Part shown: positions 15,728 through 50,132 of the stretch, one piece after another
How positions within the stretch are numbered: the stretch's first letter is position 1
How the letters are laid out: every line of letters begins with the position of its first letter
NCBI GenBank assembly: GCA_030650025.1
Contig: JAUSEN010000005.1
Coordinates: forward strand, 3,631-67,630
Length of the DNA stretch: 64,000 nt
Direction: 5' to 3'
DNA from: Candidatus Magasanikiibacteriota bacterium
Lineage (GTDB): Bacteria > Patescibacteriota > Patescibacteriia > Magasanikbacterales > GWA2-37-8
Notes under the pieces: generated by a model
What the model was told of the DNA's origin: nothing
Databases searched by the model: none
What the model saw: only the letters and a program-made list of their open reading frames with translations
Program-made: the position numbers and the translations under genes

Positions 15728-15758
15728 CTCCCCTGACACAATGTCAGGGGAGTTTTTT
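15728..15758 (+). terminator. Rho-independent terminator
   Basis: ctcccctgacacaatgtcaggggag followed by tttttt, immediately after the stop of the 14192..15700 gene. Confidence 0.7.
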
Positions 15759-15760
15759 GG

Positions 15761-15850
15761 TGGACCTAGCCAGCCCCGCACCACGCTGGGTGCGGGGTAA
15801 AAATCGAACTGCCGTCCCGGCAATGCGCCCCGACGTAAAGTCGGGGTAAA
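15761..15850 (-). pseudogene. tRNA-Ala-like 3' partial duplicate (anticodon loop to CCA) with GC-rich hairpin insertions
   Basis: Minus-strand reading ...GCGCATTGCCGGGACGGCAGTTCGATT[TTTACCCCGCACCCAGCGTGGTGCGGGG]CTGGCTAGGTCCACCA matches the 3' part of the adjacent tRNA-Ala(CGC). It carries a 27-nt hairpin in the T-arm, and a second hairpin CCCCGACTTTACGTCGGGG lies just 5'. There is no 5' acceptor strand. Confidence 0.45.
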
Positions 15851-15865
15851 AATGCCTTTGTGTTG

Positions 15866-19176: not shown

Positions 19177-20580
19177 TTATTGCACGGGCTGAATGTCTGG
19201 CTTGGCTCCGCTCCGGCGGGCTATAAAATATACGATGAGGACAAAAGCGACCACGGTTATTAAAGGAAGGAAACCATAACAATAGGTATTTAACATCTGG
19301 AAGGTGCTTATTTTGGTAAAGGAGAGTGAGCCCTCGACAGTTTCAACGTTAGCATCTAAGTTCGTGTCCTGCTCGGCCAGATTGTCCAGAGTTTTCTCCT
19401 TACTATTGATCTGCGTATTATAGCTATTTAATTTTTGTTGATAGCTGGAGTTTTCGGCGGCAATCTGATTTTTTAGCGAAGCGATTTGCCGACGTAATTC
19501 GGCTTTACGTGCGCTCATCGCTGTTTCATCTTCGGGCGTAATATAATCGATCGGTACAGCATTTTCTAATTCTCGTAGTTCTACTTCTTTGGCAGCCAAT
19601 TGCTTGTTGAGCAAAGCCAGCGTGGCGTTGTGCTTTTTAGTTAGTTCATTGCGTACCTTGGTAAGTTCCGCTAAGCTGGCAGTAGTTTTGTCGGTATTTT
19701 TTTCGATAACTTGTTTTTGGGGTAACAAGTTTTGCGAAGAAATATTTTCTTTAATAAATTTAGCACCAACAAAAGTTTTGATTTCTTCTCTAAACTCGGC
19801 AAACTTGTCTTTAGGGAGAGCAAAACTAATATAGCTATTCATATCCGAGATGTTGGCATTGTCCACGCGACCACCAAACCCCCGCACCGTAATGGCGGCG
19901 CGTTCGGCTAAATCACCCGGGTTCCGTGTCTTCAGGCTGGCATAGTAACTAGTTTTTAAATATTCACGGGTATCGCGAATGTCGTTTTGGCTAGAGTAGT
20001 CGGGGGGCATAGGGTAATACTCGGCGGACTCGTCTGATTTAAACATTCCGCCTACGGCACTAACCGCTCGAGCCATGGGGTTAGATACGCGGATGTCGGA
20101 AGCACCGAGGCCAGACTCTTGCGCCATCTGAAGATTCCCGCCACCCCCAGAGTAATTGCCAGGGCTACCCGCCCCGCCGCTAGTAGTGGCAGTCACCAGT
20201 TGGTTAACTACAAAAGACCCTACACTGTAAACTGCGACCACAACGATAAGCAGGCCGCCGCCTACTTTAATAAGAGTAAAAGGCGCGACTTGGCGAGCGA
20301 TCGCATTGCCGATTTTAGTAAAAATTGATTCTCGCTGTTGTGGATTGTTTTGGGTCATATTATTTTTAACAGATGAATTAGACTGGGATAGCTTGGGGAT
20401 TAATTTAGAAAAGCTCGCGCGCGCAGCGGCGTCTTCTTGGGCGTTAACAAAAATTTCGGAGGCTCGTAACAACTCTTTTGTAGGGGTCGCATATATGCGA
20501 CCCCTACAAGGCGTATCAAATAAAGCTTCGTCTAAAGCCTCGTCCAGTTCAATTTCTAATTTTTCTTCGTTGTAATCCAT
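19177..20580 (-). CDS. Membrane-spanning anti-sigma-factor-like protein (DUF4349-like coiled-coil ectodomain, C-terminal TM)
   Basis: 467 aa. TM helix FTLIKVGGGLLIVVVAVYSVGSFVV, a coiled-coil region, and a C-terminal TM LPLITVVAFVLIVYFIARR. Its start is 2 nt after the stop of the ECF sigma gene. Confidence 0.5.
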   Translation of the reverse strand: MDYNEEKLEIELDEALDEALFDTPCRGRIYATPTKELLRASEIFVNAQEDAAARASFSKLIPKLSQSNSSVKNNMTQNNPQQRESIFTKIGNAIARQVAPFTLIKVGGGLLIVVVAVYSVGSFVVNQLVTATTSGGAGSPGNYSGGGGNLQMAQESGLGASDIRVSNPMARAVSAVGGMFKSDESAEYYPMPPDYSSQNDIRDTREYLKTSYYASLKTRNPGDLAERAAITVRGFGGRVDNANISDMNSYISFALPKDKFAEFREEIKTFVGAKFIKENISSQNLLPQKQVIEKNTDKTTASLAELTKVRNELTKKHNATLALLNKQLAAKEVELRELENAVPIDYITPEDETAMSARKAELRRQIASLKNQIAAENSSYQQKLNSYNTQINSKEKTLDNLAEQDTNLDANVETVEGSLSFTKISTFQMLNTYCYGFLPLITVVAFVLIVYFIARRSGAKPDIQPVQ

Positions 20581-23798: not shown

Positions 23799-23897
23799 CG
23801 ATAAACAATTTTCAATCGGCTCTCAAATTGTTAATTGTTACTTGTCCCGCCACAGCGGGATCCCGCCTCGCGGCGGTGATTAATTGAATAAATTTTT

Positions 23898-24155: not shown

Positions 24156-24171
24156 GCAAAATAAAAGATTT

Positions 24172-24200
24172 AAAAACCCTCTCCGCGGAGAGGGTTTTTA
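24172..24200 (+). terminator. Rho-independent terminator after rpsT
   Basis: aaaaaccctctccgcggagagggttttt. Confidence 0.75.
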
Positions 24201-24239
24201 AATTAAGTCTCTTAAGTTAAGCGCCTTAACTAAAGCAGG

Positions 24240-25298
24240 TTAAATGGCGGCCACAAAAAAATCGAGTAGCAACTCGCGCGGAGCCAGGCTAGTTTTGATT
24301 TGCTGTTCTAGCTCTAAAAATTTGCGATACGTTTTTTGCAGTTGAGCGAGGGGGGCGCGGCGCGCCAGCCCCAAATTTTTTTTAACAACAAAAGGGTGCA
24401 AGCCGAGCTCCCGAGCGATGGCGTCGCTCGTGGCCGCGCTGTCGCCTTCTAAAAAATCCGCTATTTGCAATAAAATTCTATATTGCCAAATAACGAGGCC
24501 GACTATCCTCCCATCTTCTTCGCCCAAACCGCGCTGATGCGCCAAAAGCTGGAGCGCTTTTTTATGGTCGCCCTGTGCTACGGCATCAACCAGAGAAAAA
24601 ATATTATCATCTAACTTGGCTTTAACAAACAAGCCAACGGCTTCCGGAGTCACTGGTTCGGCGCCACAAAAAGCCAGCAAAATATCTATTAAATTGCTGG
24701 CCTCCCAGGTGTCCGAAACGCTGGCGCCAATTTTAGCCGCGGCTTCGGGAGTAATACTGCCGCCGCGCGCAGCGCCCTCGGACTTGACCCAGGCATTAAG
24801 ACTGGCGCCAGCGAGAGGCGCGAATTCGCGCGCGTATTTTTCTTTTTTTAATAACGCTTCTAGCTCTTTAGCTTCTTTAATTTTGGAGAGCGGCTCCCCC
24901 TGCCAGAAAACCACCACCGGGCTGTCGCCAAAAACCTGTTTTTTTATTTTTTCTATCATGACGGCAAGCAATTCTTTGTCTTTACTCGCTAAAATATTTT
25001 CTATTACCACCATTCTTTTTTCGGCTAAAAAGGGCGTGGCCGATAACTCACCCAGAATTTTACCTAGATCATCTCCGCCCGAGGCCTGCCTCGACCTAGT
25101 CTCATCAAGGCGGACGGATCCACCTGTGACGGGTAAAATAACCACGTTGTACCCGGCTGGGTCGCGCGTAGTTTTAAATTGCTTAATAGAGTGGCGCAGA
25201 TACTCCCGAGAACGGTAGGTATCCTCGCCGTAAATATATATAATCATAAAAATGGGCTTGATACGGTTCATCTTACCGCTTTGGAAGCTCTTTGGCAA
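24240..25298 (-). CDS. holA: DNA polymerase III delta subunit (HolA-like)
   Basis: Delta-subunit-like length and C-terminal pattern (ALQLLAHQRGLGEED..IVGLVIWQYRILLQ). The true start may be the internal Met at 25271 or 25247. Confidence 0.6.
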   Translation of the reverse strand: MPKSFQSGKMNRIKPIFMIIYIYGEDTYRSREYLRHSIKQFKTTRDPAGYNVVILPVTGGSVRLDETRSRQASGGDDLGKILGELSATPFLAEKRMVVIENILASKDKELLAVMIEKIKKQVFGDSPVVVFWQGEPLSKIKEAKELEALLKKEKYAREFAPLAGASLNAWVKSEGAARGGSITPEAAAKIGASVSDTWEASNLIDILLAFCGAEPVTPEAVGLFVKAKLDDNIFSLVDAVAQGDHKKALQLLAHQRGLGEEDGRIVGLVIWQYRILLQIADFLEGDSAATSDAIARELGLHPFVVKKNLGLARRAPLAQLQKTYRKFLELEQQIKTSLAPRELLLDFFVAAI

Positions 25299-25351
25299 TA
25301 AAAATGGCGCGATAGAGGGTAGTATGATATAATCGGGTTGTTAATTTTTTT

Positions 25352-26605
25352 ATGAAATCAATCCACACGGACATTCTAATACTAGGAGCCGGGATCGGCG
25401 GCTACCAGGCTTTTCGAAAATTATCACGAGGACTTAAAAAATACGGGATCAAAAAAACAATTACTATAATTGATAAAAATAATTATTTTACTTTTTATCC
25501 GCTCCTGCACGAAGTAGCGACCGGGGTGGTGGAGCCAGAGCATTGCACGGTGGCCTTGCGCGAGTTAGTGGCGGGGGGGCCGCACGCCTTTGTGAAGGCG
25601 GTAGTAAAACACATTGATGTAGAAAGAAAACTGGTATATTTGGACTGCGACCAAATTGAATGCGATGCTATTAGCTATGACTATTGCATCAGTTCTCTCG
25701 GCACAGGCGTTAACTTTTTTAACACGCCCGGCGCGGCCGAGTACGCTCACCACATTAAAACCCTGGAACACGCCATTACTTTTCGCCAAGCGCTGATTAA
25801 TCGTTTTGATACCGTGGATAAGCATATCACGGTAGCCGTGGTGGGAGGCGGCATGACGGGAATTGAAATTGGCAGCCATATTGCCCATTTTTTAAACTTT
25901 GATTTAAAAAAACTTTATCCGGAAAAAACTTCATCTATAAAAATAATTGAAAAAAACAAAGAGTTGGTGGAGTTTTTGCCGCCCAAAGCCCGCCGCCTGA
26001 TTGCGCGGCGCCTCCATAAACTGGGCGTTGAGGTAATACTAAATACCGGCGTGCGCGAAATAAAACCAGATAGTGTGATTTTGAGCGATGGCCGCGAAAT
26101 GGAAAGTGATTTAACCATGTGGTCGATTGGCGTGTTGAACGCGGCGGACAAAATTTTGCCGGCGGATTGGTGCGAACGCGGCTGTATACCGGTTAATGAA
26201 TTTTTGCAGACCAAAAAAAATAAATTTTTTTACGCCATCGGCGATATGATGCTGTGGGTAAACCCTAAAACTGGCAAACCCATTCCGCAAATGGGCGAAG
26301 CCGCGCACCGCGAGGCCGACTACGCGGCCAAACACCTGGTTAACACTCTCCGCGAAAAAATGACTAAGCCTTTTAGTTTTGAATCGCTTGGCACCATGAT
26401 GCCAATTGGAGAAAATTATGGGCTGTTTGTGAAAAATAATTTTGTGGTGGGCGGTTTTTTGGCCTGGTGGCTGCGCCGCACAGTGTACGTATTCTTTATG
26501 CCGGGCATGATCCGCAAAATCAAAATCATTGTGGATTGGACATTGCGCCTGTTTGGTTTTGCTGATATAGTAAGTATGAAGATTTACACGCCTACTAAAA
26601 AATAA
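25352..26605 (+). CDS. ndh: Type II NADH dehydrogenase-like FAD/NAD(P)-dependent oxidoreductase
   Basis: N-terminal GAGIGG dinucleotide-binding motif, a second GGGMTGIE motif, and the C-terminal membrane-anchoring region typical of NDH-2. Confidence 0.7.
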   Translation: MKSIHTDILILGAGIGGYQAFRKLSRGLKKYGIKKTITIIDKNNYFTFYPLLHEVATGVVEPEHCTVALRELVAGGPHAFVKAVVKHIDVERKLVYLDCDQIECDAISYDYCISSLGTGVNFFNTPGAAEYAHHIKTLEHAITFRQALINRFDTVDKHITVAVVGGGMTGIEIGSHIAHFLNFDLKKLYPEKTSSIKIIEKNKELVEFLPPKARRLIARRLHKLGVEVILNTGVREIKPDSVILSDGREMESDLTMWSIGVLNAADKILPADWCERGCIPVNEFLQTKKNKFFYAIGDMMLWVNPKTGKPIPQMGEAAHREADYAAKHLVNTLREKMTKPFSFESLGTMMPIGENYGLFVKNNFVVGGFLAWWLRRTVYVFFMPGMIRKIKIIVDWTLRLFGFADIVSMKIYTPTKK

Positions 26606-26616
26606 ACACTGACTTC

Positions 26617-26660
26617 CTCCTCCTCGGCTTTCCGCTGGGCGCGGAAAATCCTCGGAGTCG
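26617..26660 (+). repeat. Conserved intergenic hairpin motif, copy A (copy B at 36434..36480)
   Basis: cctcctcggctttccgctgggcgcggaaaatcctcggagtcgg versus cctccccttcggtcttctgctgggcgcagaaaatccttggggtcgg. The stem is tccgc/gcgga in A and tctgc/gcaga in B, a compensatory C>T/G>A change. Confidence 0.5.
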
Positions 26661-26728
26661 GAATAACCGGTATAGATAAAATTTTATTAATTTACACCTC
26701 GCCTAAAAACGGGACTAACAACTGTAAT

Positions 26729-27259
26729 ATGTGTAAAATAGACGGCAAAATGGGGTGCCATGGGTACATGAAACACTGGGGGCTCCTTGGCCTCCGGCTC
26801 GCGGTTGGTTTTATTATCGCCTACATGGGCTACAGCAAACTGTGGATACGCCCCGAGGCCACTGCCACCATGATGGCTACTATTGGCATTGGGAGCGGGG
26901 TATTTTGGGCCTACTTGGTAGGCATTTTAGAGTTTGTGGGCGGACTCATGATTATGACCGGGGTTTACGCCCCAATCGCGGCTACTTGGCAAAGCCTAAT
27001 TTTGCTGGTAGCAATATTCACCGTGCACCGGGGCAACCCCGTAACCGGATATTTTTTGCCACTCGCAGTTTTGGGTGGTTGTTTAGCATTGATGGGCACA
27101 GGCGCGGGCAAATATCGCTTGCTTAAAATGCAGTGTTGTTGCAAGTCCTGTCGCGCCGGTTGCATGATGTGTGGGACGGGTGGCGAGGGTGGTGGCTGTG
27201 GCGGGAATTGCGGTTGCGATCATGACAAACCAACCGGAAGCATGCCTCAATCCAAGTAA
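26729..27259 (+). CDS. DoxX-family membrane protein with a C-terminal Cys-rich (metallothionein-like) tail
   Basis: DoxX-like TM core (LLGLRLAVGFIIAYMGYSKLW...). Tail QCCCKSCRAGCMMCGTGGEGGGCGGNCGCDHDKPTG. Likely start is Met14 at 26768. Confidence 0.6.
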   Translation: MCKIDGKMGCHGYMKHWGLLGLRLAVGFIIAYMGYSKLWIRPEATATMMATIGIGSGVFWAYLVGILEFVGGLMIMTGVYAPIAATWQSLILLVAIFTVHRGNPVTGYFLPLAVLGGCLALMGTGAGKYRLLKMQCCCKSCRAGCMMCGTGGEGGGCGGNCGCDHDKPTGSMPQSK

Positions 27260-27284
27260 ATATCAAATAAATAATAAAAATTTT

Positions 27285-27320
27285 AAAACACCCTCTGCTT
27301 AGCAGAGGGTGTTTTGTTTT
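27285..27320 (+). terminator. Rho-independent terminator
   Basis: caccctctgcttagcagagggtg followed by ttttgtttt. Confidence 0.75.
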
Positions 27321-27342
27321 ATTTGACTTAATTTTTAGATTT

Positions 27343-27579
27343 TTATTTATGGTCAATCCTTTTAATTTCTGATTCTGCTAAAAAATTCTGAAACCAAGTG
27401 AGCAAGAGTTGGGGTTCTCCTCCCCCCACAGCGTATGAAGTCATATAGACAAGAATTTCAGTTACATGGTCTTGTGGATTATCCAAAAAATCACTAACAA
27501 AGGGGGGTTCATTTTTAAGTACCGCCCTGGAACGCGCCACAAAATCTGCTAAATTTAGAACTGGTCTAATTGGACTCAT
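27343..27579 (-). CDS. Hypothetical protein (78 aa)
   Basis: ORF only; no recognisable motifs. Confidence 0.3.
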   Translation of the reverse strand: MSPIRPVLNLADFVARSRAVLKNEPPFVSDFLDNPQDHVTEILVYMTSYAVGGGEPQLLLTWFQNFLAESEIKRIDHK

Positions 27580-27666
27580 AAAATACTAATTATTATGAAA
27601 ACTGGCTATAAGGCAAGTTCGATTAAGTATAATATAGAAAATAAAAAATGACAACATCGCCCTTCA

Positions 27667-28413
27667 CTATTCCGGCAGTGACCGCCACATAATTTCAAAC
27701 AGCTCGCGGTGCAAGCGCACCACGCTGGGGTTTTCTATCACAATAGCCATAATGGGCGTCTCCAGCTGATGGATAACCACCCGCTTGGGGATAATGACCA
27801 GGTTAGTATTAAGCGAGGTGCCGGGCGGCAGTAGTTTAATTTTCTTATTAAATGTTTGCTCCAGCCGTTTATGTTCGCGCGCTAGGGCCGAATCCTGCAC
27901 CAGGAGGCGGATTTTAATGGGGAGTTTAGCGCGGCGTTTGGTGAAGTCTAAAAAAAATTCTTTATCCAAATTTAGCCATTGTTCTCGGTGCGAGATGATT
28001 AAATAATCTTCTTTGGGACGCACATCTTTAATCAACCCCTCATAAACCGATTTTATGCCCGCCAGGCCCTCATAATATTTAATCGTACTCTCGCCGCCCT
28101 TGAGATTGTAGAGCGCCGAAAATTCTGGCAGAGCATTGGCTAAAAGTTGGCGACGATTGTCCAATATCGTTTGGAGCTGCTCCGGATCAGCTGCCGCGAA
28201 AAGCTGCTTGAATCCTTTAATTTGAACCACTACTAAACCCTTAATTTTTAGCGCTTCCACCACCGAATACACGGTGGTCCGTTTAATTTCCGCGGCCGCG
28301 GCAATTTTAAGCACCGTAGCTGGCCCTATTGCCAGCATCGCCAAATACACGGCCGACTCATGTTCGGTCAGGCCGAGAGTGGTTAAAATTGATAATAAAC
28401 GCCTTTTTTGCAT
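27667..28413 (-). CDS. TrmB-family transcriptional regulator, paralog 3
   Basis: N-terminus LTEHESAVYLAMLAIGPATVLKIAAAAEIKRTTVYSVVEALKIKGLV. Confidence 0.65.
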   Translation of the reverse strand: MQKRRLLSILTTLGLTEHESAVYLAMLAIGPATVLKIAAAAEIKRTTVYSVVEALKIKGLVVVQIKGFKQLFAAADPEQLQTILDNRRQLLANALPEFSALYNLKGGESTIKYYEGLAGIKSVYEGLIKDVRPKEDYLIISHREQWLNLDKEFFLDFTKRRAKLPIKIRLLVQDSALAREHKRLEQTFNKKIKLLPPGTSLNTNLVIIPKRVVIHQLETPIMAIVIENPSVVRLHRELFEIMWRSLPE

Positions 28414-28494
28414 ATTTTGTCGGTTGAACCGTCAACATAATATATTCTATATTAAAGCAAAAATTCTGTCAATATCACAACTATGACGACAGAA

Positions 28495-28523
28495 TTGACA
28501 TAAATGCTAATTTATACTATAAT
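28495..28523 (+). promoter_or_regulatory. Consensus sigma-70 promoter (TTGACA, 17-nt spacer, TATAAT) for the XRE regulator
   Basis: ttgacataaatgctaatttatactataat. An overlapping ttctgtcaat...attgaca inverted repeat is a candidate operator. Confidence 0.6.
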
Positions 28524-28590
28524 GTCCAGTCAAGCTAGAAACTTGACCCGCCCGATTTTCGGGGGGTGGCTCTTTTTAAAGGAGGTACGC

Positions 28591-29010
28591 TTGCCGAGAG
28601 GGAATAAGGAAGTCAATAACTTCGGCGATTTCCTTCGCCGCTGGCGAAAAGAGCGGGATTTAAAACAGTACGAGTTGGCCAAAGAGGTCGGCGTACCCCA
28701 AGGCACTATTTCGGCTTGGGAAGTCGGACGCCAAAAACCGCAGGGAGAGTCTCTCCGTAACTTATCCCAGGTTTTGGGCATCACCTTGGTTAAAATCATG
28801 GGGCTGCTGAACCAACCAACGACAGCAAACAGGTTTCTCCTTATTATGCCGCCGCAACCGGTCTCTAAGGAGGACCTGGCGTTTGTACAAACAGTGATGG
28901 AGGGGCTTGGGCGAAGTAGCATCGAACCAGAGCTGCTGATGCATCTCATTACCCTCCGCCAGAACAGCGCTCCCGCCCCCTCGGTGGCGAAACCAAAAAC
29001 CGAGGACTGA
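28591..29010 (+). CDS. XRE-family HTH transcriptional regulator
   Basis: TTG start 6 nt after AAGGAGG. HTH QYELAKEVGVPQGTISAWEVGRQKP. The ORF-track ORF 28504..29010 has an implausible N-terminal extension. Confidence 0.6.
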   Translation: MPRGNKEVNNFGDFLRRWRKERDLKQYELAKEVGVPQGTISAWEVGRQKPQGESLRNLSQVLGITLVKIMGLLNQPTTANRFLLIMPPQPVSKEDLAFVQTVMEGLGRSSIEPELLMHLITLRQNSAPAPSVAKPKTED

Positions 29011-29138
29011 GCCGGGCAGTTTCAAAAGCCGGCATTTCACCTTGCTCCTGCCACCTCGACTACGCTCAGCACGGGAGCAAATCAAGGCAAAAAATCCCAA
29101 TCATTTAGAAAGGGATTTTTTGTTAACAAAATTTTTCT

Positions 29139-31973
29139 TTATAATTTTATTGTCTCCAGCTCATTCCAATTTTTTCCTGCTTTAACTTCGACTCGAACCG
29201 GGACAAGCAATTTTACCACGTTCTCCATGATATCTTTAACCAGCGCGCCAACTTCCGTGGCGCTATTTTTATCCACTTCAAAAATTAATTCATCGTGAAC
29301 TTGGAGGAGTAATTGGACTTTGGACCCTAGACTTTGCCTGCCCGCAACGGCTTCGCCGTAGCGAAGTCGGGCGGGGACTTTGGACGCGACCGCGATCATG
29401 GCCATTTTCATGAGGTCCGCGGCGGTGCCTTGAATGGGGTGGTTAATAGCCATGCGCTCGGCCGCGGAGCGCAGTTGAAAGTTGCTGGCGGTGAGCTCGG
29501 GGATATAACGGCGGCGTCCAAAGAGAGTCTCGCAGTAGCCATTCTCTCTGGTAAATTGTAAAGTTCCGTCCAGATATTTCTTGACGCCGCTAAACTCGCT
29601 AAAATATTTTTTAATAAAATCCCGAGCCTCGGCGTGGGGGATCTCGGCGCGCCAAGCCAAGCCATAAGCGCCCATGCCATAAAGAATGCCAAAATTAACT
29701 TCTTTGGCACTGCGCCGCATTTCTTTGGATACGTCTTTAAGAGGCACGCCATGGATAGCGGCGGCCGTAGCGGTATGGACATCTTCACCAGCCTCAAAAA
29801 TTTCCATGAGGCGCTTATCTTTAGCGAGCGAGGCGACAATGCGCAGTTCAATTTGAGAATAATCGGCGCTTAATAAAACTTTGCCCGGAGGAGCGATAAA
29901 CGCGGAGCGAATGGCTCGCCCGAGAGCAGTACGAACGGGGATGTTTTGTAAATTAGGTTCAGAACTCGAAAGGCGCCCGGTGGCTGTCACCGCCTGATTA
30001 AACGTAGTGTGAATCCGACCGGTGGTTTTGTTTATTAAGGTCGGGAGAACGTCGATGTAAGTATTTTGGAGCTTGGCTAATTCGCGATATTCTTGAATTT
30101 CGTCAACCACCAGATGCACGCCACGCAATTTCTCCAATTGTTCGGCATCAGTAGAGAGGCCAGTTTTGCCTTTTTTTAAACCCGCGGTCGGAATTTGTAA
30201 TTTGTCGAATAAGACTTCGCGTAGTTGGAGAGGCGAAGCAATATTAAATTCCATGCCCGCTAATTTATAAATTTTTTGCGTTAAATTTTTGATAGCTTCA
30301 GCCACGTCTGTAGACAGCCCGCCGAGCTTGACCCGATCAATACTAATCCCGGCCAGTTCCATAGCGACCAACACTTTAATAAGAGGCATTTCCACATTAG
30401 TAAATAAACCTAAATTATTGGCGCTCTCTAATTCTTGTTTTAAAATTTTTCCAGCAGTAGCTAAATAAAATAATTCTTGCGCCGCGGCCCGGGCGTCAAA
30501 GCCAAATAAACTTTCCTGGCCACTGCCGGCTGTCAATTCTTTGCCTAAAGTTTTTAAAATGATCGCGGCGCTATCGTGGGCGCGACTGCCGGGCTGAAGC
30601 AGGTAGGAGGCGATCATGGTGTCGAAAAGATGGCACGCGAGACCCCCTCCCCGCCCGACTTCGCTACGGCGAAGCCGTTGCGGGCGGGCTGGCTCCCCCT
30701 TTGCGAAGGGGGAGGAATGAATTGTCAAAATCTTTACCAATTGTTTTAAATCGTGGCCGATGACTGTGATTTCTGGGTTGGTAAAAATTCCGTCAATTAC
30801 GTAGGGGCGGGGTAACCCCGCCCCTACGGGATATTGATTTAAATTGTTCGGGACAAAAAAACCTTCGTTACCAACGACAATCACAAACCCATTTAAATTT
30901 CCGGAAAAAACATCATTGCCAGAGAAAGCGGCGCGACAAGCAAATTCTTTGGCGATTAAAATTTTCTCAACTAAATTTTTTACTTCTGATGTCGATTTTA
31001 TTTCTGTAAAAATAAAATCGATTAATTTTTGGCTTTTTTTAATTTTTGGTTTTTTTTCTTCGGCAGTATCAGGGCTCCCCGGCAAACGTTTTAATAGCGA
31101 AATAAATTCCAATTTTTGAAATAAGGCCGTAATCGGACCACGATCCAGCTCTTTAATAGCGCAATCCTCCAATTTAAAATTTAACCCCGGCACAGCGTTA
31201 TCTAATTTGGAAAGTTCATAGCTCATCTCGGCGCTCTCTTCGCCGGCAATTAATTTCTGAAGCACTCCGGGTTTAATTTTTTTGGTTAATTGTTCTTTGC
31301 TAGTTGTTAATTGTTTATAAATATTTTTTAAACTGCCAAATTCTTTAATTAAATCAGTCGCGGTTTTGGCGCCAATGCCCGGCACGCCGGGGATATTGTC
31401 CGAAGCATCACCGCGCAAGGCTTTGTAATCGAGCATCAGCTCGGGCCCAAAACCATACCTGTCTTTTACCGCCTTTTCATCATAAATAACCGTATCAGAC
31501 AAACCTTTTTTAAGAGTATAAACTTTTATGCCATCGTGCACGAGTTGCAGGGTGTCCATGTCGCCCGTGACGATAAATATTTCTAGTTCTTTATTTTGGG
31601 CTAATTTTTTATTTATCTCCACCAATGTGCCAATAACATCATCGGCTTCGTAGCCTTCCTGCTCAAAAATCGGGAATTTAAAAGCGCGTACTAAATCGTG
31701 CACCAGGGGAATTTGCGAATACAGTTCCGGATCAGCCTTAACGCGCGTGGCTTTGTATTGATCATAGCGTTTTAAGCGGGCATGGCTGCCGCCCGCCACA
31801 TCAAAAGTAACGGCTAGATGCGTGGGCTTTAAGTCTTTAAGGGTCTTTAAAAGCATGGAAGTAAAGCCATAGACAGCATTAACCATGAGCCCGCTTTTAG
31901 TATTCATGGGCGGAATAGCGTGGTAAGCCCGATGGATAATGGCGTTACCATCGATAATTACTAATCGGTTCAT
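29139..31973 (-). CDS. polA: DNA polymerase I
   Basis: 944 aa. N-terminal 5'-nuclease (MNRLVIIDGNAIIHRAYHA), polymerase motifs A (LLSADYSQIELRI), B (RRSAKEVNFGILYG) and C (QVHDELIFEV). Confidence 0.95.
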   Translation of the reverse strand: MNRLVIIDGNAIIHRAYHAIPPMNTKSGLMVNAVYGFTSMLLKTLKDLKPTHLAVTFDVAGGSHARLKRYDQYKATRVKADPELYSQIPLVHDLVRAFKFPIFEQEGYEADDVIGTLVEINKKLAQNKELEIFIVTGDMDTLQLVHDGIKVYTLKKGLSDTVIYDEKAVKDRYGFGPELMLDYKALRGDASDNIPGVPGIGAKTATDLIKEFGSLKNIYKQLTTSKEQLTKKIKPGVLQKLIAGEESAEMSYELSKLDNAVPGLNFKLEDCAIKELDRGPITALFQKLEFISLLKRLPGSPDTAEEKKPKIKKSQKLIDFIFTEIKSTSEVKNLVEKILIAKEFACRAAFSGNDVFSGNLNGFVIVVGNEGFFVPNNLNQYPVGAGLPRPYVIDGIFTNPEITVIGHDLKQLVKILTIHSSPFAKGEPARPQRLRRSEVGRGGGLACHLFDTMIASYLLQPGSRAHDSAAIILKTLGKELTAGSGQESLFGFDARAAAQELFYLATAGKILKQELESANNLGLFTNVEMPLIKVLVAMELAGISIDRVKLGGLSTDVAEAIKNLTQKIYKLAGMEFNIASPLQLREVLFDKLQIPTAGLKKGKTGLSTDAEQLEKLRGVHLVVDEIQEYRELAKLQNTYIDVLPTLINKTTGRIHTTFNQAVTATGRLSSSEPNLQNIPVRTALGRAIRSAFIAPPGKVLLSADYSQIELRIVASLAKDKRLMEIFEAGEDVHTATAAAIHGVPLKDVSKEMRRSAKEVNFGILYGMGAYGLAWRAEIPHAEARDFIKKYFSEFSGVKKYLDGTLQFTRENGYCETLFGRRRYIPELTASNFQLRSAAERMAINHPIQGTAADLMKMAMIAVASKVPARLRYGEAVAGRQSLGSKVQLLLQVHDELIFEVDKNSATEVGALVKDIMENVVKLLVPVRVEVKAGKNWNELETIKL
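29345..29380. repeat. GC-rich palindromic element, in-frame within the polA polymerase domain; reverse complement of the 30639..30678 element
   Basis: cccgcaacggcttcgccgtagcgaagtcgggcgggg. Translated as part of VPARLRYGEAVAGRQ just before motif C. Confidence 0.7.
30633..30706. repeat. GC-rich composite palindromic element, in-frame within polA (exo-domain-equivalent region)
   Basis: ccccctccccgcccgacttcgctacggcgaagccgttgcgggcgggctggctccccctttgcgaagggggagg. The core at 30639-30678 is the reverse complement of 29345-29380. Translated as FAKGEPARPQRLRRSEVGRGGGLA. Confidence 0.7.
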
Positions 31974-32060: not shown

Positions 32061-32099
32061 CCACGGCCCGATAGCCAAGTTAGAAAGGCAAAGGTCTGC
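32061..32099 (+). pseudogene. 5' partial copy of tRNA-Cys (4-nt leader plus positions 1-35), interrupted in the anticodon loop by a hairpin element
   Basis: ccacGGCCCGATAGCCAAGTTAGAAAGGCAAAGGTCTGC is identical to 32156-32194. After the 31-nt insert the sequence resumes with AAAACCT (anticodon stem 3' side) and then diverges. Confidence 0.6.
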
Positions 32100-32130
32100 C
32101 TCCCTACGGGAGATCCCCCGCAGGGGGACA
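32100..32130. repeat. 31-nt double-hairpin element, left copy (perfect inverted copy at 32506..32536)
   Basis: ctccctacgggagatcccccgcagggggaca. Two tandem hairpins: tccc/ggga and ccccc/ggggg. Confidence 0.8.
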
Positions 32131-32159
32131 AAACCTATTATAAACTTATTAATTACCAC

Positions 32160-32232
32160 GGCCCGATAGCCAAGTTAGAAAGGCAAAGGTCTGCAAAACC
32201 TTCATGCGCGGGTGCAACTCCCGCTCGGGCCT
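32160..32232 (+). tRNA. tRNA-Cys (anticodon GCA)
   Basis: GGCCCGATAGCCAAGTTAGAAAGGCAAAGGTCTGCAAAACCTTCATGCGCGGGTGCAACTCCCGCTCGGGCCT. Acceptor GGCCCGA/TCGGGCC, U73 discriminator typical of Cys, anticodon loop CTGCAAA. The T-loop TGCAACT is slightly non-canonical. Confidence 0.6.
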
Positions 32233-32235
32233 CAC

Positions 32236-32500
32236 TGTGTACTACGTTTACGCACTGCAAAGTCTGAAAAATAAAAATTGGCTATATATTGGCTCGTCAG
32301 AAAATTTACGGGCCCGTTTTGATGAACATACAAGCGGAAAAGTTATTTCTACAGCTAAATATAGACCACTTCGATTAGTTTATTACGAAGCATTTCTGAA
32401 CAAGAAAGATGCGACTCTACGAGAATATCAGCTTAAACATAATAGCCAGCAGAAAGAACAGCTAAAACTTAAACTTATCAATTCTCTTCAGGCTGAATAG
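32236..32500 (+). CDS. Small GIY-YIG (URI-domain, YhbQ/UPF0213-like) nuclease
   Basis: VYYVYALQSLKNKNWLYIGSSENLRARFDEHTSGK...LRLVYYEAFLNKKDATLREYQLK. The ORF-track ATG at 32204 lies inside the tRNA, so a GTG at 32236 is proposed as the start. Paralog of the 49112..49369 gene. Confidence 0.6.
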
Positions 32501-32505
32501 TTGGG

Positions 32506-32536
32506 TGTCCCCCTGCGGGGGATCTCCCGTAGGGAG
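32506..32536. repeat. 31-nt double-hairpin element, right copy (inverted)
   Basis: tgtccccctgcgggggatctcccgtagggag is the exact reverse complement of 32100-32130. Confidence 0.8.
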
Positions 32537-32596
32537 ACAAGTCCCTCCGTGGCCTCACAATTTTCTTGTTTCTTGCCTGGCAAGATTTTTTTATTT

Positions 32597-39542: not shown

Positions 39543-39935
39543 CTAAAATAAATTTATTTTTTTATAAAATAACTTTACTTCTGCTCTTAGATCAGCAAAA
39601 TTTTTTGTTAAAATAGTTATTTTAGGAACGAATAATAAGTAAAGTCCGGGACGGAGCGTTTGACCAACGCTCTCCAGGCGAATGGCTTCACGCAAAAGAC
39701 GCCTGGCACGATTACGCACCACAGCCTTTTTAGAGAACTTGACGCCGGTAGAAATCGCTAATTTTAGCTGTTTAACGAATTTATCAGGATCGACTTTTTT
39801 AGGAAAATAACTTCTGTTTTTGGCTAACTCTAACACTTTACAGCTAAAACTCTGGCTGTTTACCCAAAAACCGCGCTTAGCAACTAAATCAAAATCCCGT
39901 TTTTTAGTGATGGTGATATATGACAATCCAATCAT
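39543..39935 (-). CDS. rnpA: Ribonuclease P protein component
   Basis: 130 aa basic protein with the RNR motif region [15 protein letters not shown]. Immediately downstream of rpmH. Confidence 0.8.
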
Positions 39936-40066
39936 AATATTGATTAAAATCGCTGTAATTTCAACGATAAGATTAGTGTATAAGAATTAATGTTACAAGT
40001 CAAAAAACCCCGGTAGCTAAGACGACCAGGGTGTGTGGCAATTTATAGAAGCCGGTTGCTGAACCT

Positions 40067-40246
40067 TTAGCTCTTGAAACGGCGAAGTTTGCCTTTGATC
40101 TCGTCGGAAACCGTGAGTTTTTTGCGCCCCTTGGCGCGGCGACGAGCCAGAACACTGCGCCCGCCTTTAGTACTCATACGAGAGCGGAAGCCGTGTGACT
40201 TGGCGCGTTTACGCTTTTTTGGTTGATAGGTTCTTTTGGTAGCCAT
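40067..40246 (-). CDS. rpmH: 50S ribosomal protein L34
   Basis: Own translation of the minus strand: [59 protein letters not shown]. This matches the L34 consensus. Not in the ORF track because it is under 60 aa. Confidence 0.85.
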
Positions 40247-40451
40247 AAAAATTAAGTAAGTGGGGCTAGTATATATAATTTAAGATGGATTGTCAACAGC
40301 TTTGCCAGCCAAGTAAACTTTGTCAAGAGCGGGTTTCTCCACATCTTATCCACTAAATACGCGCTTTGATGGGTATTGATGTGGAGGGGGGGCTGTGCTA
40401 AGATGCTTCAACCTATTGGCGGTTGTTTTTTGCCTCAAATTACTAATTATT
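40247..40451. other. oriC-like region upstream of dnaA with tandem and inverted DnaA-box-like 9-mers and an AT-rich stretch
   Basis: TTCTCCACA (40336-40344) and TTATCCACT (40346-40354) in tandem; inverted gatgtggag at 40379-40387; AT-rich tatatataatttaa at 40270-40285. Confidence 0.55.
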
Positions 40452-41837
40452 ATGACGAATCACGAACTGTGGCAGTCTGTTTTGGCCGAACTAGAATTAA
40501 GCATTTCTAAAGCTAATTTCGTCACTTGGTTCAAAAATACAGGGATAATATCATTTCAAGATGGTCAGGTCGCTCTCTTTGTGCCCAACGCCTTTACCAA
40601 GGCTTGGATGGAAAAAAAATATAATCAAGTATTAATTAAGTCTTTAGAGAGGGTAAGCGGGAAGCCGATCAAGCGTTTGGAGTATCGCATTGAAAGCCCC
40701 AAGAATGTGGCAGAACAGGCGCTTGAAGCGCAAAATCAGGCGGAAGGTAGGGGGCAAGGATTTTCGCCGCAAACCATACCGGAAGAAACCACGGCTCCTA
40801 ACCAAGGGTTTACTCTTAACCCCAAATACAGCTTTGAAAGTTTTGTGGTTGGCAAAAGCAGCGAATTGGCTTTCGCGGCAGCCCAGGCGGTTTGTTCTCG
40901 CCCCGGAGTGGCTTATAACCCCCTGTTTATATATGGGGGAGTGGGCCTCGGAAAAACCCACCTCCTGCAAGCGGTCGGCAACCAACTGCGCAAAGAACGC
41001 CCCAGCACTTCCATAATGTATGTTAGCGCCGAGCGTTTTTCTAATGATTTTATCAATTCTATTAAAGAGCGCGTCACTAAAGATTTTCAGTCGCGCTACC
41101 GCGGCATTGATTTACTGCTGATCGATGATATTCAATTTAGTGCCGGGAAAGAAGGCACCCAAGAGTCTTTTTTTCATACCTTTAATGAGTTGCACCAACA
41201 AAATAAACAGGTGGTAATTACTTCGGACCGCCCGCCTAAGGCAATCCCGGCTCTCGAGGATCGCTTGCGCTCGCGTTTTGAATGGGGAATGATTGCGGAT
41301 ATTAGCGCTCCGGATTTTGAAACTAGGGTGGCGGTACTGGGTAAAAAAAGCGCGGAAAAGGCCTTCCCACTCTCGGAAAAGATCTTGCAAGCCATTGCCG
41401 CGACCGTGCAAAGTAACGTGCGCGAATTGGAGGGCGCCCTTAACAAAGTTATTGTTTTCCACCAATTAAAAAATATGGCTCCTACTTTGGAGTCAGTTAA
41501 ATCGATTCTCTCCTCGTGGGGTACAGGCAGCGCCCGCCAGTCCGTAACCGCGCGCCAGCTTCTAGATGTCGCCAGCCAATTCTTTAATATCAGCCAAGAA
41601 GATATTGTGAGCAAAAATAGAGAGAAGCGCGTGGCTCTGCCGAGGCAAGTAATAATGTTTTTGATGCGAGAGGAGTTGAAAATGAGCTACCCCGCTATTG
41701 GAGACGAGCTTGGCGGACGCGATCATACTACCGCCATGCACGCGTATGAAAAAATTTTTAGAGAGGTAGAAAATGATTTGCGCTTGCGCCAAGAAATAGA
41801 ATTGCTCCGGCAGCGTTTGTATGTGAATAACGTCTAG
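40452..41837 (+). CDS. dnaA: Chromosomal replication initiator protein DnaA
   Basis: Start at MTNHELWQSVLAELE (40452). Walker A GGVGLGKTHLLQA, sensor and box motifs, and the C-terminal DnaA-box-binding HTH. Confidence 0.95.
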   Translation: MTNHELWQSVLAELELSISKANFVTWFKNTGIISFQDGQVALFVPNAFTKAWMEKKYNQVLIKSLERVSGKPIKRLEYRIESPKNVAEQALEAQNQAEGRGQGFSPQTIPEETTAPNQGFTLNPKYSFESFVVGKSSELAFAAAQAVCSRPGVAYNPLFIYGGVGLGKTHLLQAVGNQLRKERPSTSIMYVSAERFSNDFINSIKERVTKDFQSRYRGIDLLLIDDIQFSAGKEGTQESFFHTFNELHQQNKQVVITSDRPPKAIPALEDRLRSRFEWGMIADISAPDFETRVAVLGKKSAEKAFPLSEKILQAIAATVQSNVRELEGALNKVIVFHQLKNMAPTLESVKSILSSWGTGSARQSVTARQLLDVASQFFNISQEDIVSKNREKRVALPRQVIMFLMREELKMSYPAIGDELGGRDHTTAMHAYEKIFREVENDLRLRQEIELLRQRLYVNNV

Positions 41838-42078
41838 AAAACCTGTGGATTAGTTTGGGATAGTAATGGGGGTTCGGGATGGAATGATGGGGATAAGATG
41901 TTTTTAGAGAAGGATGTTATCCCCTGTGCTATGATGATTTTTAAAAAAGACTTAGGGCGGCTCACAGTTAATACCGGGCGGCTCACAGTTAAACCCACAA
42001 GAAAAATTAATAAAATCTAATAGTTTTTCACTTATCCCCACTATCCACTCGCTTATTATAGTTATTACTTAAATATAT
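41838..42078. other. dnaA-dnaN intergenic oriC-like region: DnaA-box-like motifs, a 17-bp direct repeat and an AT-rich element
   Basis: tgtggatta (rc TAATCCACA), TTATCCCCA, CTATCCACT; gggcggctcacagttaa repeated twice (41947-41987); AT-rich tgatgatttttaaaaaag. Confidence 0.55.
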
Positions 42079-43197
42079 ATGAAATTCTCCTGTACCAAGG
42101 ATAACGTGGCGCGAGCCCTCGGTTTAATTGGCGGGCTAACTAGTAAAAATGTTACCTTGCCGATTTTGAATAACGTATTAATAAAAGTAGAGGAACAGAA
42201 AATTGAATTTGTCGCCACCAATTTAGAATTGGCAGTGGTAGTGGTGGTGAGGGGAAAGGTAGACGCGACCGGGGCTTTTACGGTGCCGGCCCGGACACTA
42301 AGCGACTTTGTGGGGCTGTTACCTAACGAGCGGATTGATTTTGAATTAGTGGGAGGCGAGTTGGCCTTGGCTTGCGGAAAAACCAGTACCAAAATAAAAG
42401 GGATGGGGTCAGATGAATTTCCGGTATTACCGGCTTTGGGCAGTGGGGCTGGTTTTACGGTTTTAGTAGACACTCTAACTACGGCTCTTAATAGAGTGCT
42501 CCCGGCTATCGCGAGAAATGAGATTAGGCCAGAGTTGTCGGGAGTATACTTTGGTTTTAACACTCGCGAGGCCAAAACACTAGTGTTGGCGTCTACAGAC
42601 AGCTATCGATTAGCCGAGCAAGTAATCGCTTTAGAAAGCGGAGCCGAGGCGCTTGGCGTGGTGGTGCCGGGCCGGACTGCCCAGGAAGTGGCCCGAGCAC
42701 TAAGCGCGGCCGAAGAAGGAGAAAAATCCGTGCGTTTATTAGTGAGCGCCAATCAATTAGTGGTTAATTATGATAGTGTTCAAATTATTTCGCGCTTGGT
42801 GGCGGGCCAATATCCTGATTATACCCAAATAATTCCCCAGCAGTTTAAAACTACCGTGGTGATCGCGACTAGCCATATGCAAAAAGAAATGAAAGCCGCC
42901 GGTTTGTTTACCACGAGCGGCGTTAACGCGGTGGCTGTAGAAGCATTGCCAGAAAAGAAGGTAATTTCTTTGACAGCGTCTTCACAGCAAACCGGCGAGT
43001 ATGCCTCGGAAGTGGAATGCGAGGTGATGGGTGAGGCGGTAACAGTTTTATTAAATCACCGTTATGTATTAGATGGGCTTAATCAGATGGCTTCGCCGGA
43101 AGTTAAATTGCAATTAGCCGGCCCCGAGAGCCCTTGTCTTTTGACTGCCGAGAAAGAAGTGGGGTTTCGTTATATTGTGATGCCGATTAGGCAGTAA
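42079..43197 (+). CDS. dnaN: DNA polymerase III beta sliding clamp
   Basis: 372 aa. MKFSCTKDNVARALGLIGGLTSKNVTLPILNNVLIK is a typical DnaN N-terminus. Follows dnaA. Confidence 0.9.
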   Translation: MKFSCTKDNVARALGLIGGLTSKNVTLPILNNVLIKVEEQKIEFVATNLELAVVVVVRGKVDATGAFTVPARTLSDFVGLLPNERIDFELVGGELALACGKTSTKIKGMGSDEFPVLPALGSGAGFTVLVDTLTTALNRVLPAIARNEIRPELSGVYFGFNTREAKTLVLASTDSYRLAEQVIALESGAEALGVVVPGRTAQEVARALSAAEEGEKSVRLLVSANQLVVNYDSVQIISRLVAGQYPDYTQIIPQQFKTTVVIATSHMQKEMKAAGLFTTSGVNAVAVEALPEKKVISLTASSQQTGEYASEVECEVMGEAVTVLLNHRYVLDGLNQMASPEVKLQLAGPESPCLLTAEKEVGFRYIVMPIRQ

Positions 43198-48931: not shown

Positions 48932-48986
48932 TGGTGGACCCTGTCGGGCTCGAACCGACCACCTCCGCATTGCAAACGCGGCGCTC
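48932..48986 (-). pseudogene. 3' portion (D-stem 3' strand to CCA) of a split tRNA-Ala(UGC)-like gene
   Basis: Minus-strand reading GAGCGCCGCGTTTGCAATGCGGAGGTGGTCGGTTCGAGCCCGACAGGGTCCACCA: anticodon loop TTTGCAA, T-loop TTCGAGC, encoded CCA. The matching 5' piece GGGCCCTTAGCTCAT lies at 49443-49457, separated by ~456 bp. Confidence 0.55.
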
Positions 48987-49038
48987 CCGTGCACCACAAG
49001 GGTGCACGGCCATGAACCCTTGTGGTTCATGGTACCAG
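48983..49038. repeat. 56-nt double-hairpin direct repeat, copy 1 (copy 2 at 49387..49442)
   Basis: gctcccgtgcaccacaagggtgcacggccatgaacccttgtggttcatggtaccag. Hairpins ccgtgcacc/ggtgcacgg and catgaacc/ggttcatg. Copy 2 is identical except for one nt. Confidence 0.85.
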
Positions 49039-49110
49039 TGGACCTGAGGGGATTCGCACCCCTGACCTTCGCCTTGCAAAGGCGCCGCTCTACTACTGAG
49101 CTACAGGCCC
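49039..49110 (-). tRNA. tRNA-Ala (anticodon UGC)
   Basis: GGGCCTGTAGCTCAGTAGTAGAGCGGCGCCTTTGCAAGGCGAAGGTCAGGGGTGCGAATCCCCTCAGGTCCA. G3:U70 pair, anticodon loop TTTGCAA. Confidence 0.8.
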
Positions 49111-49111
49111 T

Positions 49112-49369
49112 TTATTTAGTTGACCTCAAGTATTCGTACAGCATTAATCGTAATGTTGTTTTGCCTTTGTTTGTTTTGAAATATTTTTCTCTCCTCTTGG
49201 CATCATGCTCGTGTAAAAAGGCCTCATAAAAAATAAGTTTGACCGGTAAAAATTTGCTTGTTGTTTTATCCCCACCCGCGGAGTGTTCTCTGACTCGGCG
49301 TTTAAGATCGGCTGAATAGCCCGTGTAAAATTGTTTATTGCACATCATTAATATGTAGGTATAAAACAT
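49112..49369 (-). CDS. Small GIY-YIG (YhbQ/UPF0213-like) nuclease, paralog of the 32236..32500 gene
   Basis: MFYTYILMMCNKQFYTGYSADLKRRVREHSAGGDKTTSKFLPVKLIFYEAFLHEHDAKRREKYFK aligns with the other GIY-YIG protein. The ORF-track N-terminus (to 49417) is encoded by repeat copy 2 and is probably not translated. The stop lies 1 nt from the tRNA-Ala 5' end. Confidence 0.6.
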   Translation of the reverse strand: MFYTYILMMCNKQFYTGYSADLKRRVREHSAGGDKTTSKFLPVKLIFYEAFLHEHDAKRREKYFKTNKGKTTLRLMLYEYLRSTK

Positions 49370-49386
49370 ATTTGCAGATATATATT

Positions 49387-49442
49387 GCTCCCGTGCACCA
49401 CAAGGGTGCACGGCCATGAACCCTTGTGGTTCATGGTTCCAG
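49387..49442. repeat. 56-nt double-hairpin direct repeat, copy 2
   Basis: gctcccgtgcaccacaagggtgcacggccatgaacccttgtggttcatggttccag. Confidence 0.85.
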
Positions 49443-50013: not shown

Positions 50014-50132
50014 TAAGTTTGGGTTTAAGCGGTATTCTATAAAATCAAAAAATCTCTTGTAAAAAAGAGGTTTTTTAATTTGTTTAAATTTTACAAATAA
50101 AATCGCCCCTCTCGACAGGCTCGAGGTCTTGT

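Follow-up and report, generated by a model that had tools for sequence, protein, structure and literature searches.

GC-rich hairpin elements read in frame in the polA gene of a Candidatus Magasanikiibacteriota bacterium

Four hairpin-forming elements in polA

We analyzed the polA gene, which encodes DNA polymerase I (PolA), in a stretch of 64,000 nucleotides from a metagenome-assembled genome (MAG) of a Candidatus Magasanikiibacteriota bacterium (contig JAUSEN010000005.1, positions 3,631 to 67,630), a member of the Patescibacteria or candidate phyla radiation (CPR). This whole stretch is referred to as the window. The gene carries four GC-rich hairpin-forming elements at three sites, here called a, b and c: two copies of a core, one each at sites b and c, a second hairpin (hp2) beside the core at site b, and a palindrome at site a (Table 1). 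The protein is 100% identical to an NCBI entry for DNA polymerase I of Candidatus Magasanikbacteria from a 67.6-kb contig, contains the Pfam domains 5'-3' exonuclease and DNA_pol_A, and matches Taq polymerase with E = 2.6e-161. An alignment of 21 PolA sequences has invariant columns, among them the polymerase motifs DYSQIELR and QVHDE, which this protein shares, and the 5'-nuclease residues that are invariant among the aligned orthologs are also kept. An earlier note on this DNA, made from the letters of the window, had held that the gene was not disrupted; judged by these residues, polA with its insertions is apparently a functional gene.

Table 1. Coordinates of the features in the window, counted from its first letter (ORF, open reading frame)
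Feature	Position	Strand	Remarks
polA, host gene of the insertions	29139-31973	minus	944-aa ORF
Core copy c	29336-29377	minus	42-nt hairpin unit; 14 codons, V866 position 2 to Q880 position 1
Core copy b	30648-30689	plus	42-nt unit, opposite orientation to copy c; A429-G442
hp2	30693-30716	minus	24-nt insertion, S420-E427; holds a 22-nt hairpin at 30693-30714
Palindrome a	30800-30828		Perfect 29-nt palindrome within an insertion of ~33 nt; about Y381-Y391
Cys cassette (tRNA-Cys and GIY-YIG gene)	32097-32539	plus	~120 nt upstream of the polA start, in a broken older tRNA-Cys
Intact tRNA-Cys	32160-32233		In the Cys cassette
GIY-YIG ORF of the Cys cassette	32237-32500	plus	87 aa, single-domain; PF01541, E = 5e-14
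Cys double hairpin	32097-32130 and 32506-32539		Inverted copies, 30-34 nt; TCCCCC-TGC-GGGGGA TCTCCC-GTA-GGGAGA
Ala cassette (tRNA-Ala(UGC) and GIY-YIG gene)	48983-49454	minus	Surrounding region 48932-49460
Intact inner tRNA-Ala	49038-49110	minus	In the Ala cassette
GIY-YIG ORF of the Ala cassette	49112-49369	minus	85 aa
Intergenic unit	50653-50756		~100 nt; three CCCGCC/GGCGGG hairpins in AT-rich inverted ends AATAATGTCGTGAATA / TATTCACGACATTAT

The core unit reads TCCCCGCCCGACTTCGCTACGGCGAAGCCGTTGCGGGCGGGC. Its two copies are inverted, lie 1270 nt apart and are identical at 41 of the 42 positions (98% complementary), with a single G/A difference. A search that allowed up to 3 mismatches recovered just these two sites in the window, and 100 shuffles gave none. 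Each copy folds into an 8-bp outer stem, CCCGCCCG/CGGGCGGG, around a 6-bp hairpin in which CTTCGC and GCGAAG enclose a tetraloop, and the two copies are read in frame in PolA as EPARPQRLRRSEVGRGGGLA and VPARLRYGEAVAGRQ, which add Arg-rich peptides to the protein (Arg/Gly/Pro-rich loops). The core is open in five of the six reading frames, so that survival in frame in either orientation is unsurprising. The earlier note had described this repeat as a core of 36-40 nt with an inverse copy. The repeat is real, the translations are exactly as claimed, and the nesting of the inner hairpin in the outer stem was confirmed by folding, whereas the coordinates were 9-11 nt off, with the 40-mer located at 30649-30688 rather than at 30639-30678.

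The same note had seen a second hairpin beside the upstream copy. This is hp2, CTCCCCCTT-TGCG-AAGGGGGAG, which is located 3 nt from core b and which we count as an insertion of its own. The element at the third site is newly found: palindrome a, CGTAGGGGCGGGG-TAA-CCCCGCCCCTACG, has a 13-bp stem, a TAA loop and GTAG/CTAC ends, and is translated as PVGAGLPRPY.

Folded as DNA, the two cores reached -15.6 and -15.9 kcal/mol (z = -2.9 and -3.2 relative to shuffles), while the z values were -4.4 for hp2, -5.6 for palindrome a and -6.2 for the 67-nt double hairpin at 30648-30714 that consists of core b and hp2. In an RNA-fold scan of the window in 44-nt pieces, the mean was -7.3 +/- 4.3 kcal/mol and the polA elements scored -25 to -30, which places them among the most stable structures of the 64 kb. 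Inteins and introns were considered and rejected; the elements are only 22-42 nt in size, the frame is preserved, as expected if they are translated, and Rfam recovered six tRNAs only in the window.

Loop lengths and predicted structure of PolA

To place the elements in an evolutionary context, we used two sets of orthologs. One contained 20 database homologs with 57-62% identity to PolA, and the other contained the PolA genes and DNA of 80 species-representative genomes (81 genes with that of the window). The three inserted segments were missing from most of the 20 + 80 orthologs. The usual length of the orthologs is 888-905 aa, and the protein of the window would be 897 aa long without its inserts (944 minus 47 aa, or 141 nt extra in total). 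The loop at site a is 20 aa in the window as compared to a mode of 9 aa in the orthologs, with an insert of 33 nt. At site b, the loop is 33 aa long versus a mode of 11 aa (57 of the 81 genes), and the excess corresponds exactly to the 8 codons of hp2 and the 14 codons of core b, without which the loop drops to the modal 11 aa. The loop at site c is 29 aa and is reduced to 15 aa if the 14-codon core is removed, within the range of 11-25 aa in the orthologs (mode 18). Since removal of 33, 24 + 42 and 42 nt, respectively, restores typical or modal loop lengths, we read the segments as insertions. The earlier note had suggested an alignment of orthologs as a check, and the absence of the segments from most of about 100 PolA sequences shows that all four elements are lineage-specific in-frame insertions.

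The insertion sites also stood out in an AlphaFold2 model of PolA. The mean predicted local distance difference test (pLDDT) score was 79.6, and values below 50 were obtained at residues 383-390, 422-443 and 872-883, which are the three insertion sites. All three are flanked by confident helices and strands, and the remaining segments of low confidence were residues 61-65 and 74-79 and the interdomain linker at 301-317. By comparison with Taq polymerase, sites a and b fall in the poorly conserved, vestigial 3'-5' exonuclease region, and site c is the loop directly ahead of the motif C strand, so the placement of the two cores in the earlier note stands. The inserted peptides are thus predicted by the model to be disordered and to lie in tolerated surface loops.

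As a control, we examined the palindrome CCCGGGCG-AGATCCG-CGCCCGGG at 55186-55208 in a NUDIX gene, which encodes the peptide PGRDPRPG. The peptide is (nearly) invariant in all homologs, and this palindrome was rejected as an insertion. The control also led us to reject the notion that any GC-rich palindrome inside an ORF is an insertion.

Palindromic insertions in related polA genes

For a survey of the 81 PolA genes, we counted insertion blocks that were internal, lineage-specific and at least 7 aa long, and assigned those that were both GC-enriched and had a fold z < -2.5 as compared to other parts of the gene to a strict class. A total of 56 blocks were obtained, of which 15 belonged to the strict class. 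These were spread over 11 genomes, 10 besides that of the window, and two thirds of them (10 of 15) were located at the same two loops as sites b and c. Their sequences were all different. A filter of tolerance accounts for such a pattern, in which different palindromes occur at the same two loops across genomes. Many of the PolA inserts are long nested palindromes with ends of the GTCAT...ATGAC type, for example those of the genomes L004, L008 and L031. We also sought a common insertion target for cores b and c, and none was seen.

No other match to the core was found in the 64-kb window. Scans for exact 20-mers of the core gave 0 matches in viral contigs and in a set of one genome per species, which evidently excludes this MAG as a non-representative. 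A 20-mer match in a JGI metagenome was dismissed as a chance hit, as it was located in an unrelated ORF without the outer stems.

GIY-YIG cassettes in tRNA genes

Two genes for small GIY-YIG nucleases are located in the window, each in a cassette bounded by hairpins inside a tRNA gene, and one of these cassettes is a close neighbor of polA (Table 1). The 87-aa protein of the Cys cassette is the same as an 87-aa 'GIY-YIG nuclease family protein' in NCBI, and the closest match in the PDB is the UPF0213 protein 1ZG2 (E = 6e-7). NCBIfam has no specific model for these GIY-YIG proteins. The left Cys hairpin is located in the anticodon loop of a duplicated 5' half of tRNA-Cys, after ...TCTG and before CAAAACC, and the right one interrupts the T loop of a remnant tRNA 3' part, between GGGTG and CAAGTCCC. 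Two divergent genomes with the same layout, L005 (PolA identity 59%) and L065 (46%), have this hairpin upstream of polA, with 94-100% identity over 31 nt. We found 36 homologs of the GIY-YIG protein and fetched the contigs of four. Three of these adjoin tRNA-Cys, in differing neighborhoods, and have the double hairpin between gtcTG and CAAAAc of a broken tRNA-Cys copy; at the fourth locus, L088, no complete tRNA gene was seen. The layout of repeat, gene and repeat was also found in L005, L065 and L082.

The Cys cassettes span positions 32062-32560 in the window, 1-500 in L005, 3270-3830 in L065, 1300-1830 in L082, 1380-1960 in L084 and 1330-1760 in L086, and the boundary hairpin is always located between TG and CAAA in the anticodon or T loop of the broken outer tRNA-Cys. 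Among nine distinct copies of the double hairpin, pairing was 99%, and compensatory changes were observed in 7 of the 12 pairs, a result that 0 of 500 shuffles reached. This arrangement looks like a cassette that invades tRNA genes and brings a replacement tRNA.

On both sides of the Ala cassette, in direct orientation, lies a 46-nt double hairpin that is part of a 68-nt repeat at 48983-49050 and 49387-49454. This double hairpin differs from that of the Cys cassette and sits in the D loop of a split outer tRNA-Ala, the two halves of which jointly retain the G3:U70 pair. The tRNA-Ala that ARAGORN predicted at 48932-49005 is a chimera of the hairpin and the 3' part of the outer tRNA. Where hairpins interrupt the tRNAs of the window, the tRNA sequence resumes exactly past the insert, with no duplication. 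A group I intron or another RNA family was considered for the loci with tRNA and GIY-YIG genes and was discarded, as Rfam finds tRNAs alone.

A tRNA-Ala 3' remnant with a T-loop hairpin, CCCCGCACC-CAGCGT-GGTGCGGGG, was observed at 15753-15852 on the minus strand, downstream of tRNA-Ala(CGC), and a second hairpin, CCCCGAC-TTTAC-GTCGGGG, is located near it. The site has no nuclease gene and looks like the scar of a lost cassette.

The relationship between these cassettes and palindromes in polA could be examined in L004, a Magasanikbacteria MAG from Lake Baikal. Here, a GIY-YIG gene is located between inverted repeats of ~47 nt (positions 806-1198), with TTGTCATCCCGA and GAGGGATCTCTGTCC on the two sides of a variable hairpin, and the insertion in polA (4321-4411) has GTCAT...ATGAC termini, GTCATTGCGAGG...CCTCGGGATGAC, that match these flanking repeats. 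This suggests an autonomous element and its miniature derivative. Across the polA loci, strict palindromic inserts in PolA were present at 3 of the 4 loci that have a GIY-YIG gene within 4 kb and at 8 of the 77 others (hand-calculated one-sided Fisher test, p ~0.007), an association that is confounded by the genome-level repeat load.

Other hairpins in the window

The earlier note had regarded hairpins at 50653-50756 and at the tRNA loci as related to the core in polA. Both sets of hairpins exist, but they have no sequence relation to the core, and those at the tRNA loci belong to other sequence families and bracket the GIY-YIG cassettes. By eye, the hairpins in polA and those of the cassettes have only short motifs in common, a TCCCCC/GGGGGA stem and CCCGTAGGG. 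No structure in the window is more stable than the intergenic unit at 50653-50756 (-34.3 kcal/mol), the right end of which overlaps the start codon of an ORF at 50133-50654. Each of the further hairpin families of the window is likewise present twice, at sites that are genic, intergenic or next to a cassette.

One of the families with two copies is a double hairpin with the pattern TCCCGC-loop-GCGGGA, twice. The copy at 11348-11386 is in frame near the N-terminus of a 2143-aa ORF (5073-11504), where it is read as ..PPLRDPARGG.., and the copy at 23845-23876 is intergenic, downstream of rmuC. The 2143-aa ORF has no Pfam match and contains internal repeats of 63-209 nt (7488-10522). A perfect palindrome with a 13-bp stem, TTGTAGGGGTCGC-ATATAT-GCGACCCCTACAA, is located in frame at 20478-20509 in the N-terminal region of a hypothetical ORF (19177-20580), in what may be coding sequence; the ends of the palindrome, GTAGGGG/CCCCTAC, are as in palindrome a. 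Another palindrome with an 11-bp stem, GGCGGAGGTGG-AGGAGAG-CCACCTCCGCC, at 977-1020 in a minus-strand ORF that runs off the start of the window, encodes GGGGGSPPPPPPPPPPPP, in which a run of Gly is mirrored by a run of Pro. The genes rnpA, dnaA and dnaN are located together at 39543-43197, and for this reason the region of the replication origin probably falls within the window, even though the cumulative GC skew climbs throughout and has no turning point.

Origin of the elements

We consider that the elements in polA are probably palindromic insertions akin to repetitive extragenic palindromes (REPs) and Rickettsia palindromic elements (RPEs), which were kept where they were in frame and tolerated. 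Before turning to how such insertions could arise, we have to ask whether they are real. The metagenome was assembled from short reads, and the PolA protein is known from one contig. With two inverted 42-mers at its ends, the 1.27-kb segment could be placed in either orientation at small k, and Logan contigs from the same sample (run SRR13727527) stop exactly at the repeats, which are hard to assemble. Two such contigs correspond to positions 24174-29369 and 49408-62354 of the window with 100% identity and no gaps. The latter begins inside the Ala double hairpin, and the contig ends fall in palindromes, namely this double hairpin, core c and a terminator hairpin at 24165-24208, indicating that k-mer assemblies break at palindromes. 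The other contig, however, extends from upstream genes through the 3' end of polA and 34 nt of core c, including the copy-specific base, before it ends, and the polA/core-c junction is thereby confirmed by an independent assembly. Moreover, the ORF is intact and collinear with its orthologs over all junctions, including both inverted cores, which implies that the segment between them is correctly oriented. The lengths of the inserts are all multiples of three and their removal gives typical or modal loops, and many independent MAGs show the same phenomenon. An assembly artefact is therefore a most improbable explanation. A second possibility is that one core was copied from the other, 1.3 kb away, by a template switch or break repair, as an inverted duplication within the gene and with no dispersed element. 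The two known copies share one 2.8-kb gene, where they face opposite ways at a distance of 1270 nt, no further core was found in the public collections searched, and two random placements in 64 kb would both fall in polA with a chance of ~4% by our own estimate (2.8/64). Yet, local copying leaves the origin of the first copy unexplained, and likewise the two unrelated palindromes in polA and the different ones at the same loops in 10 genomes. The microhomology at the junctions is no more than 1-2 nt, and other hairpin families of the window are represented in unrelated contexts at a distance of 12 kb. We consider local copying unlikely.

More specific forms of insertion and retention can also be envisaged. 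The earlier note had called the elements REP/MITE-like, and a classical MITE (miniature inverted-repeat transposable element) would be a non-autonomous unit that has terminal inverted repeats, depends on a DDE transposase to move and is bordered by a target-site duplication. On the two sides of copy c there is a 9-bp direct repeat, TCCAAAGTC (SKV...SKV in the protein), the outer stem of the core could act as terminal inverted repeats, and the unit at 50653-50756 has terminal inverted repeats that are AT-rich. The direct repeat looked convincing as a target-site duplication, but was disfavored by the loop lengths: if a duplication is assumed (51 nt + 9 nt), site c would have had an ancestral loop of 9 aa, whereas the minimum in full-length orthologs is 11 aa and clean excision of 42 nt leaves 15 aa. 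Copy b has no matching duplication, and removal of core b and hp2 gives the exact modal length. A clean insertion of 42 nt at site c is favored for these reasons, the loop of the duplication model being too short and copy b being without such a repeat. Furthermore, copy b does not share the 12 nt between core c and the direct repeat, tRNA loops are interrupted by hairpins without duplication, and a Pfam search of the ORFs of at least 110 aa in the window and the 98-aa GIY-YIG ORF revealed no transposase, RAYT or Y1 (HUH) domain. A MITE in this sense is thus very improbable, and of the two halves of the term the REP-like one fits better. It could also be argued that the Arg/Gly/Pro loops, or hairpins in the mRNA, have been selected for effects on the activity or expression of PolA, such as DNA binding or a mutator phenotype. 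The peptides are Arg-rich, one is located beside motif C, the same loops have been hit repeatedly in many genomes, and Di Nocera et al. argue that chance is an unlikely reason for the presence of REPs in replication and repair genes (PMC3733652). Against this, the sequences at the same loops are wholly different between genomes and missing from most, the composition of the peptides follows from a GC-rich palindrome in an open frame, and the recurrence at two loops is also predicted by a tolerance filter. With peptides that are unconserved and predicted to be disordered, the exaptation that the earlier note had entertained finds no support, and we consider an adaptive role very unlikely.

In the scenario of REP/RPE-like insertions that we prefer, the elements would spread via single-stranded hairpin intermediates and insert apparently without target duplication, which together with the hairpin structure is a hallmark of the REP type. 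Most landings would be genic, the CPR genome being gene-dense, and the only inserts to survive selection would be those that measure a multiple of three nucleotides, are free of stop codons and are located in a flexible surface loop. The inserted peptides would then be tolerated passengers with no functional addition. The candidate enzyme would be either a hairpin-specific nuclease acting on single-stranded DNA (ssDNA), such as the small Ssn-like GIY-YIG proteins of the window, or a transposase of the RAYT type encoded in another part of the genome. The repeat, its hairpins, their absence from orthologs, the restored loop lengths, the predicted disorder and the recurrence in related genomes are observed; mobility, mechanism and enzyme are inferred, and several observations weigh against the scenario. 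Only two copies of the core are known, both in polA, the 20-mer scans of species genomes, JGI metagenomes and viral contigs having given no other, so that the 42-nt unit is a putative member of a mobile repeat family. The window has no gene for a transposase of the kinds searched for, the hairpins in polA differ in sequence from those that flank the GIY-YIG genes, and the published SRM search motif gave 0 matches in the window. The core has neither of the conserved tags of REPs, GTAG or CGTC, and at its 5' end the unit has only 'TC' in common between the two copies; the GTAG of palindrome a is paired with CTAC rather than being an unpaired tag. Finally, the direct repeat around copy c could be a target-site duplication and as such indicative of a MITE-type mechanism.

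If the elements are moved by a GIY-YIG nuclease, insertion would need host repair, since GIY-YIG enzymes are hydrolytic. That such a nuclease moves the hairpins in polA is possible, although we would put it forward only tentatively. More speculative still is the idea that they are ORF-less offshoots of cassettes with Ssn-like GIY-YIG nucleases that invade the loops of tRNA genes in Patescibacteria, with a replacement tRNA and conserved double-hairpin boundaries; the target loops in the tRNAs would be TG/CAAA in the anticodon and T loops of tRNA-Cys and the D loop of tRNA-Ala. If true, a class of mobile elements guided by hairpins and driven by ssDNA nucleases would also seed in-frame palindromes into essential genes. 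In any case, the cassettes in tRNA genes alongside polA provide a concrete candidate for the movement of hairpins, and they are a more novel lead than the finding in polA itself.

Comparison with known systems

Palindromic elements inside genes were reportedly first described in Rickettsia, as RPEs, by Ogata et al. in 2000. Small GC-rich insertions are also known from fungal mitochondria, where GC clusters and double-hairpin elements occur in an AT-richer genome, some of them in frame and some beside genes for mobile endonucleases; these are organellar and have no sequence relation to the elements in polA.

Systems of REPs or REPINs with RAYT, and those of the insertion sequences IS200/IS605, resemble the case of polA in that they have hairpin repeats, no target duplication, a presumed ssDNA intermediate and repeats that flank the gene for the enzyme. 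They differ in that a REPIN is a doublet, while the cores in polA stand 1270 nt apart, and in that they have a Y1/HUH transposase, of which the Pfam scans of the window found none.

A closer parallel to the cassettes is provided by the small GIY-YIG Ssn nucleases, whose own genes lie between hairpin repeats, next to which these enzymes cut ssDNA (Chenal et al. 2025, PMC11893778). As in ssnA, the proteins of the window are single-domain GIY-YIG nucleases (85-87 aa) with hairpin repeats on both sides (30-46 nt), and the GTCAT...ATGAC termini in L004 resemble the start of the NTS, CGTCATTCC. The likeness is one of architecture, and the cassettes differ from Ssn in being located inside tRNA genes, with a spare tRNA. 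The authors point to a layout like that of insertion sequences and to an enrichment in repeat-rich symbionts such as Rickettsia, and NTS repeats are seldom located inside genes (2%); the word 'tRNA' is absent from the main text (PMC11893778). The published SRM motif had 3 matches in the 80 polA loci.

The elements in polA are most similar to intragenic REPs and RPEs. Such REPs have been described inside genes in several phyla, strikingly many of them in genes for replication and repair, including DNA polymerase I; they encode 20-30 aa, at times with two in the same ORF (PMC3733652). REP super-families carry an unpaired GTAG or CGTC tag at one end, and some RPEs of Rickettsia have been equated with CGTC-tagged REPs (PMC3733652). 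Like these, the elements in polA are short GC-rich palindromes in frame in functional genes, absent from orthologs and 10-30 aa in size. The differences are that intragenic REPs and RPEs occur in tens to thousands of copies, as compared to two known copies of the core, and that the elements described here are found in a host from the Patescibacteria and have a tagless core with a nested hairpin-in-hairpin structure. Our literature searches for palindromic or hairpin insertions in CPR or Patescibacteria turned up nothing relevant. The palindromes in PolA of the CPR are thus a known phenomenon, given the REPs published from polA and repair genes, that is new for this group. They extend selfish in-gene palindromes, known from Rickettsia, Opitutus and others, to reduced and gene-dense CPR genomes, in which such inserts lengthen proteins, disrupt matches to Pfam domains and fragment short-read assemblies at the repeats.

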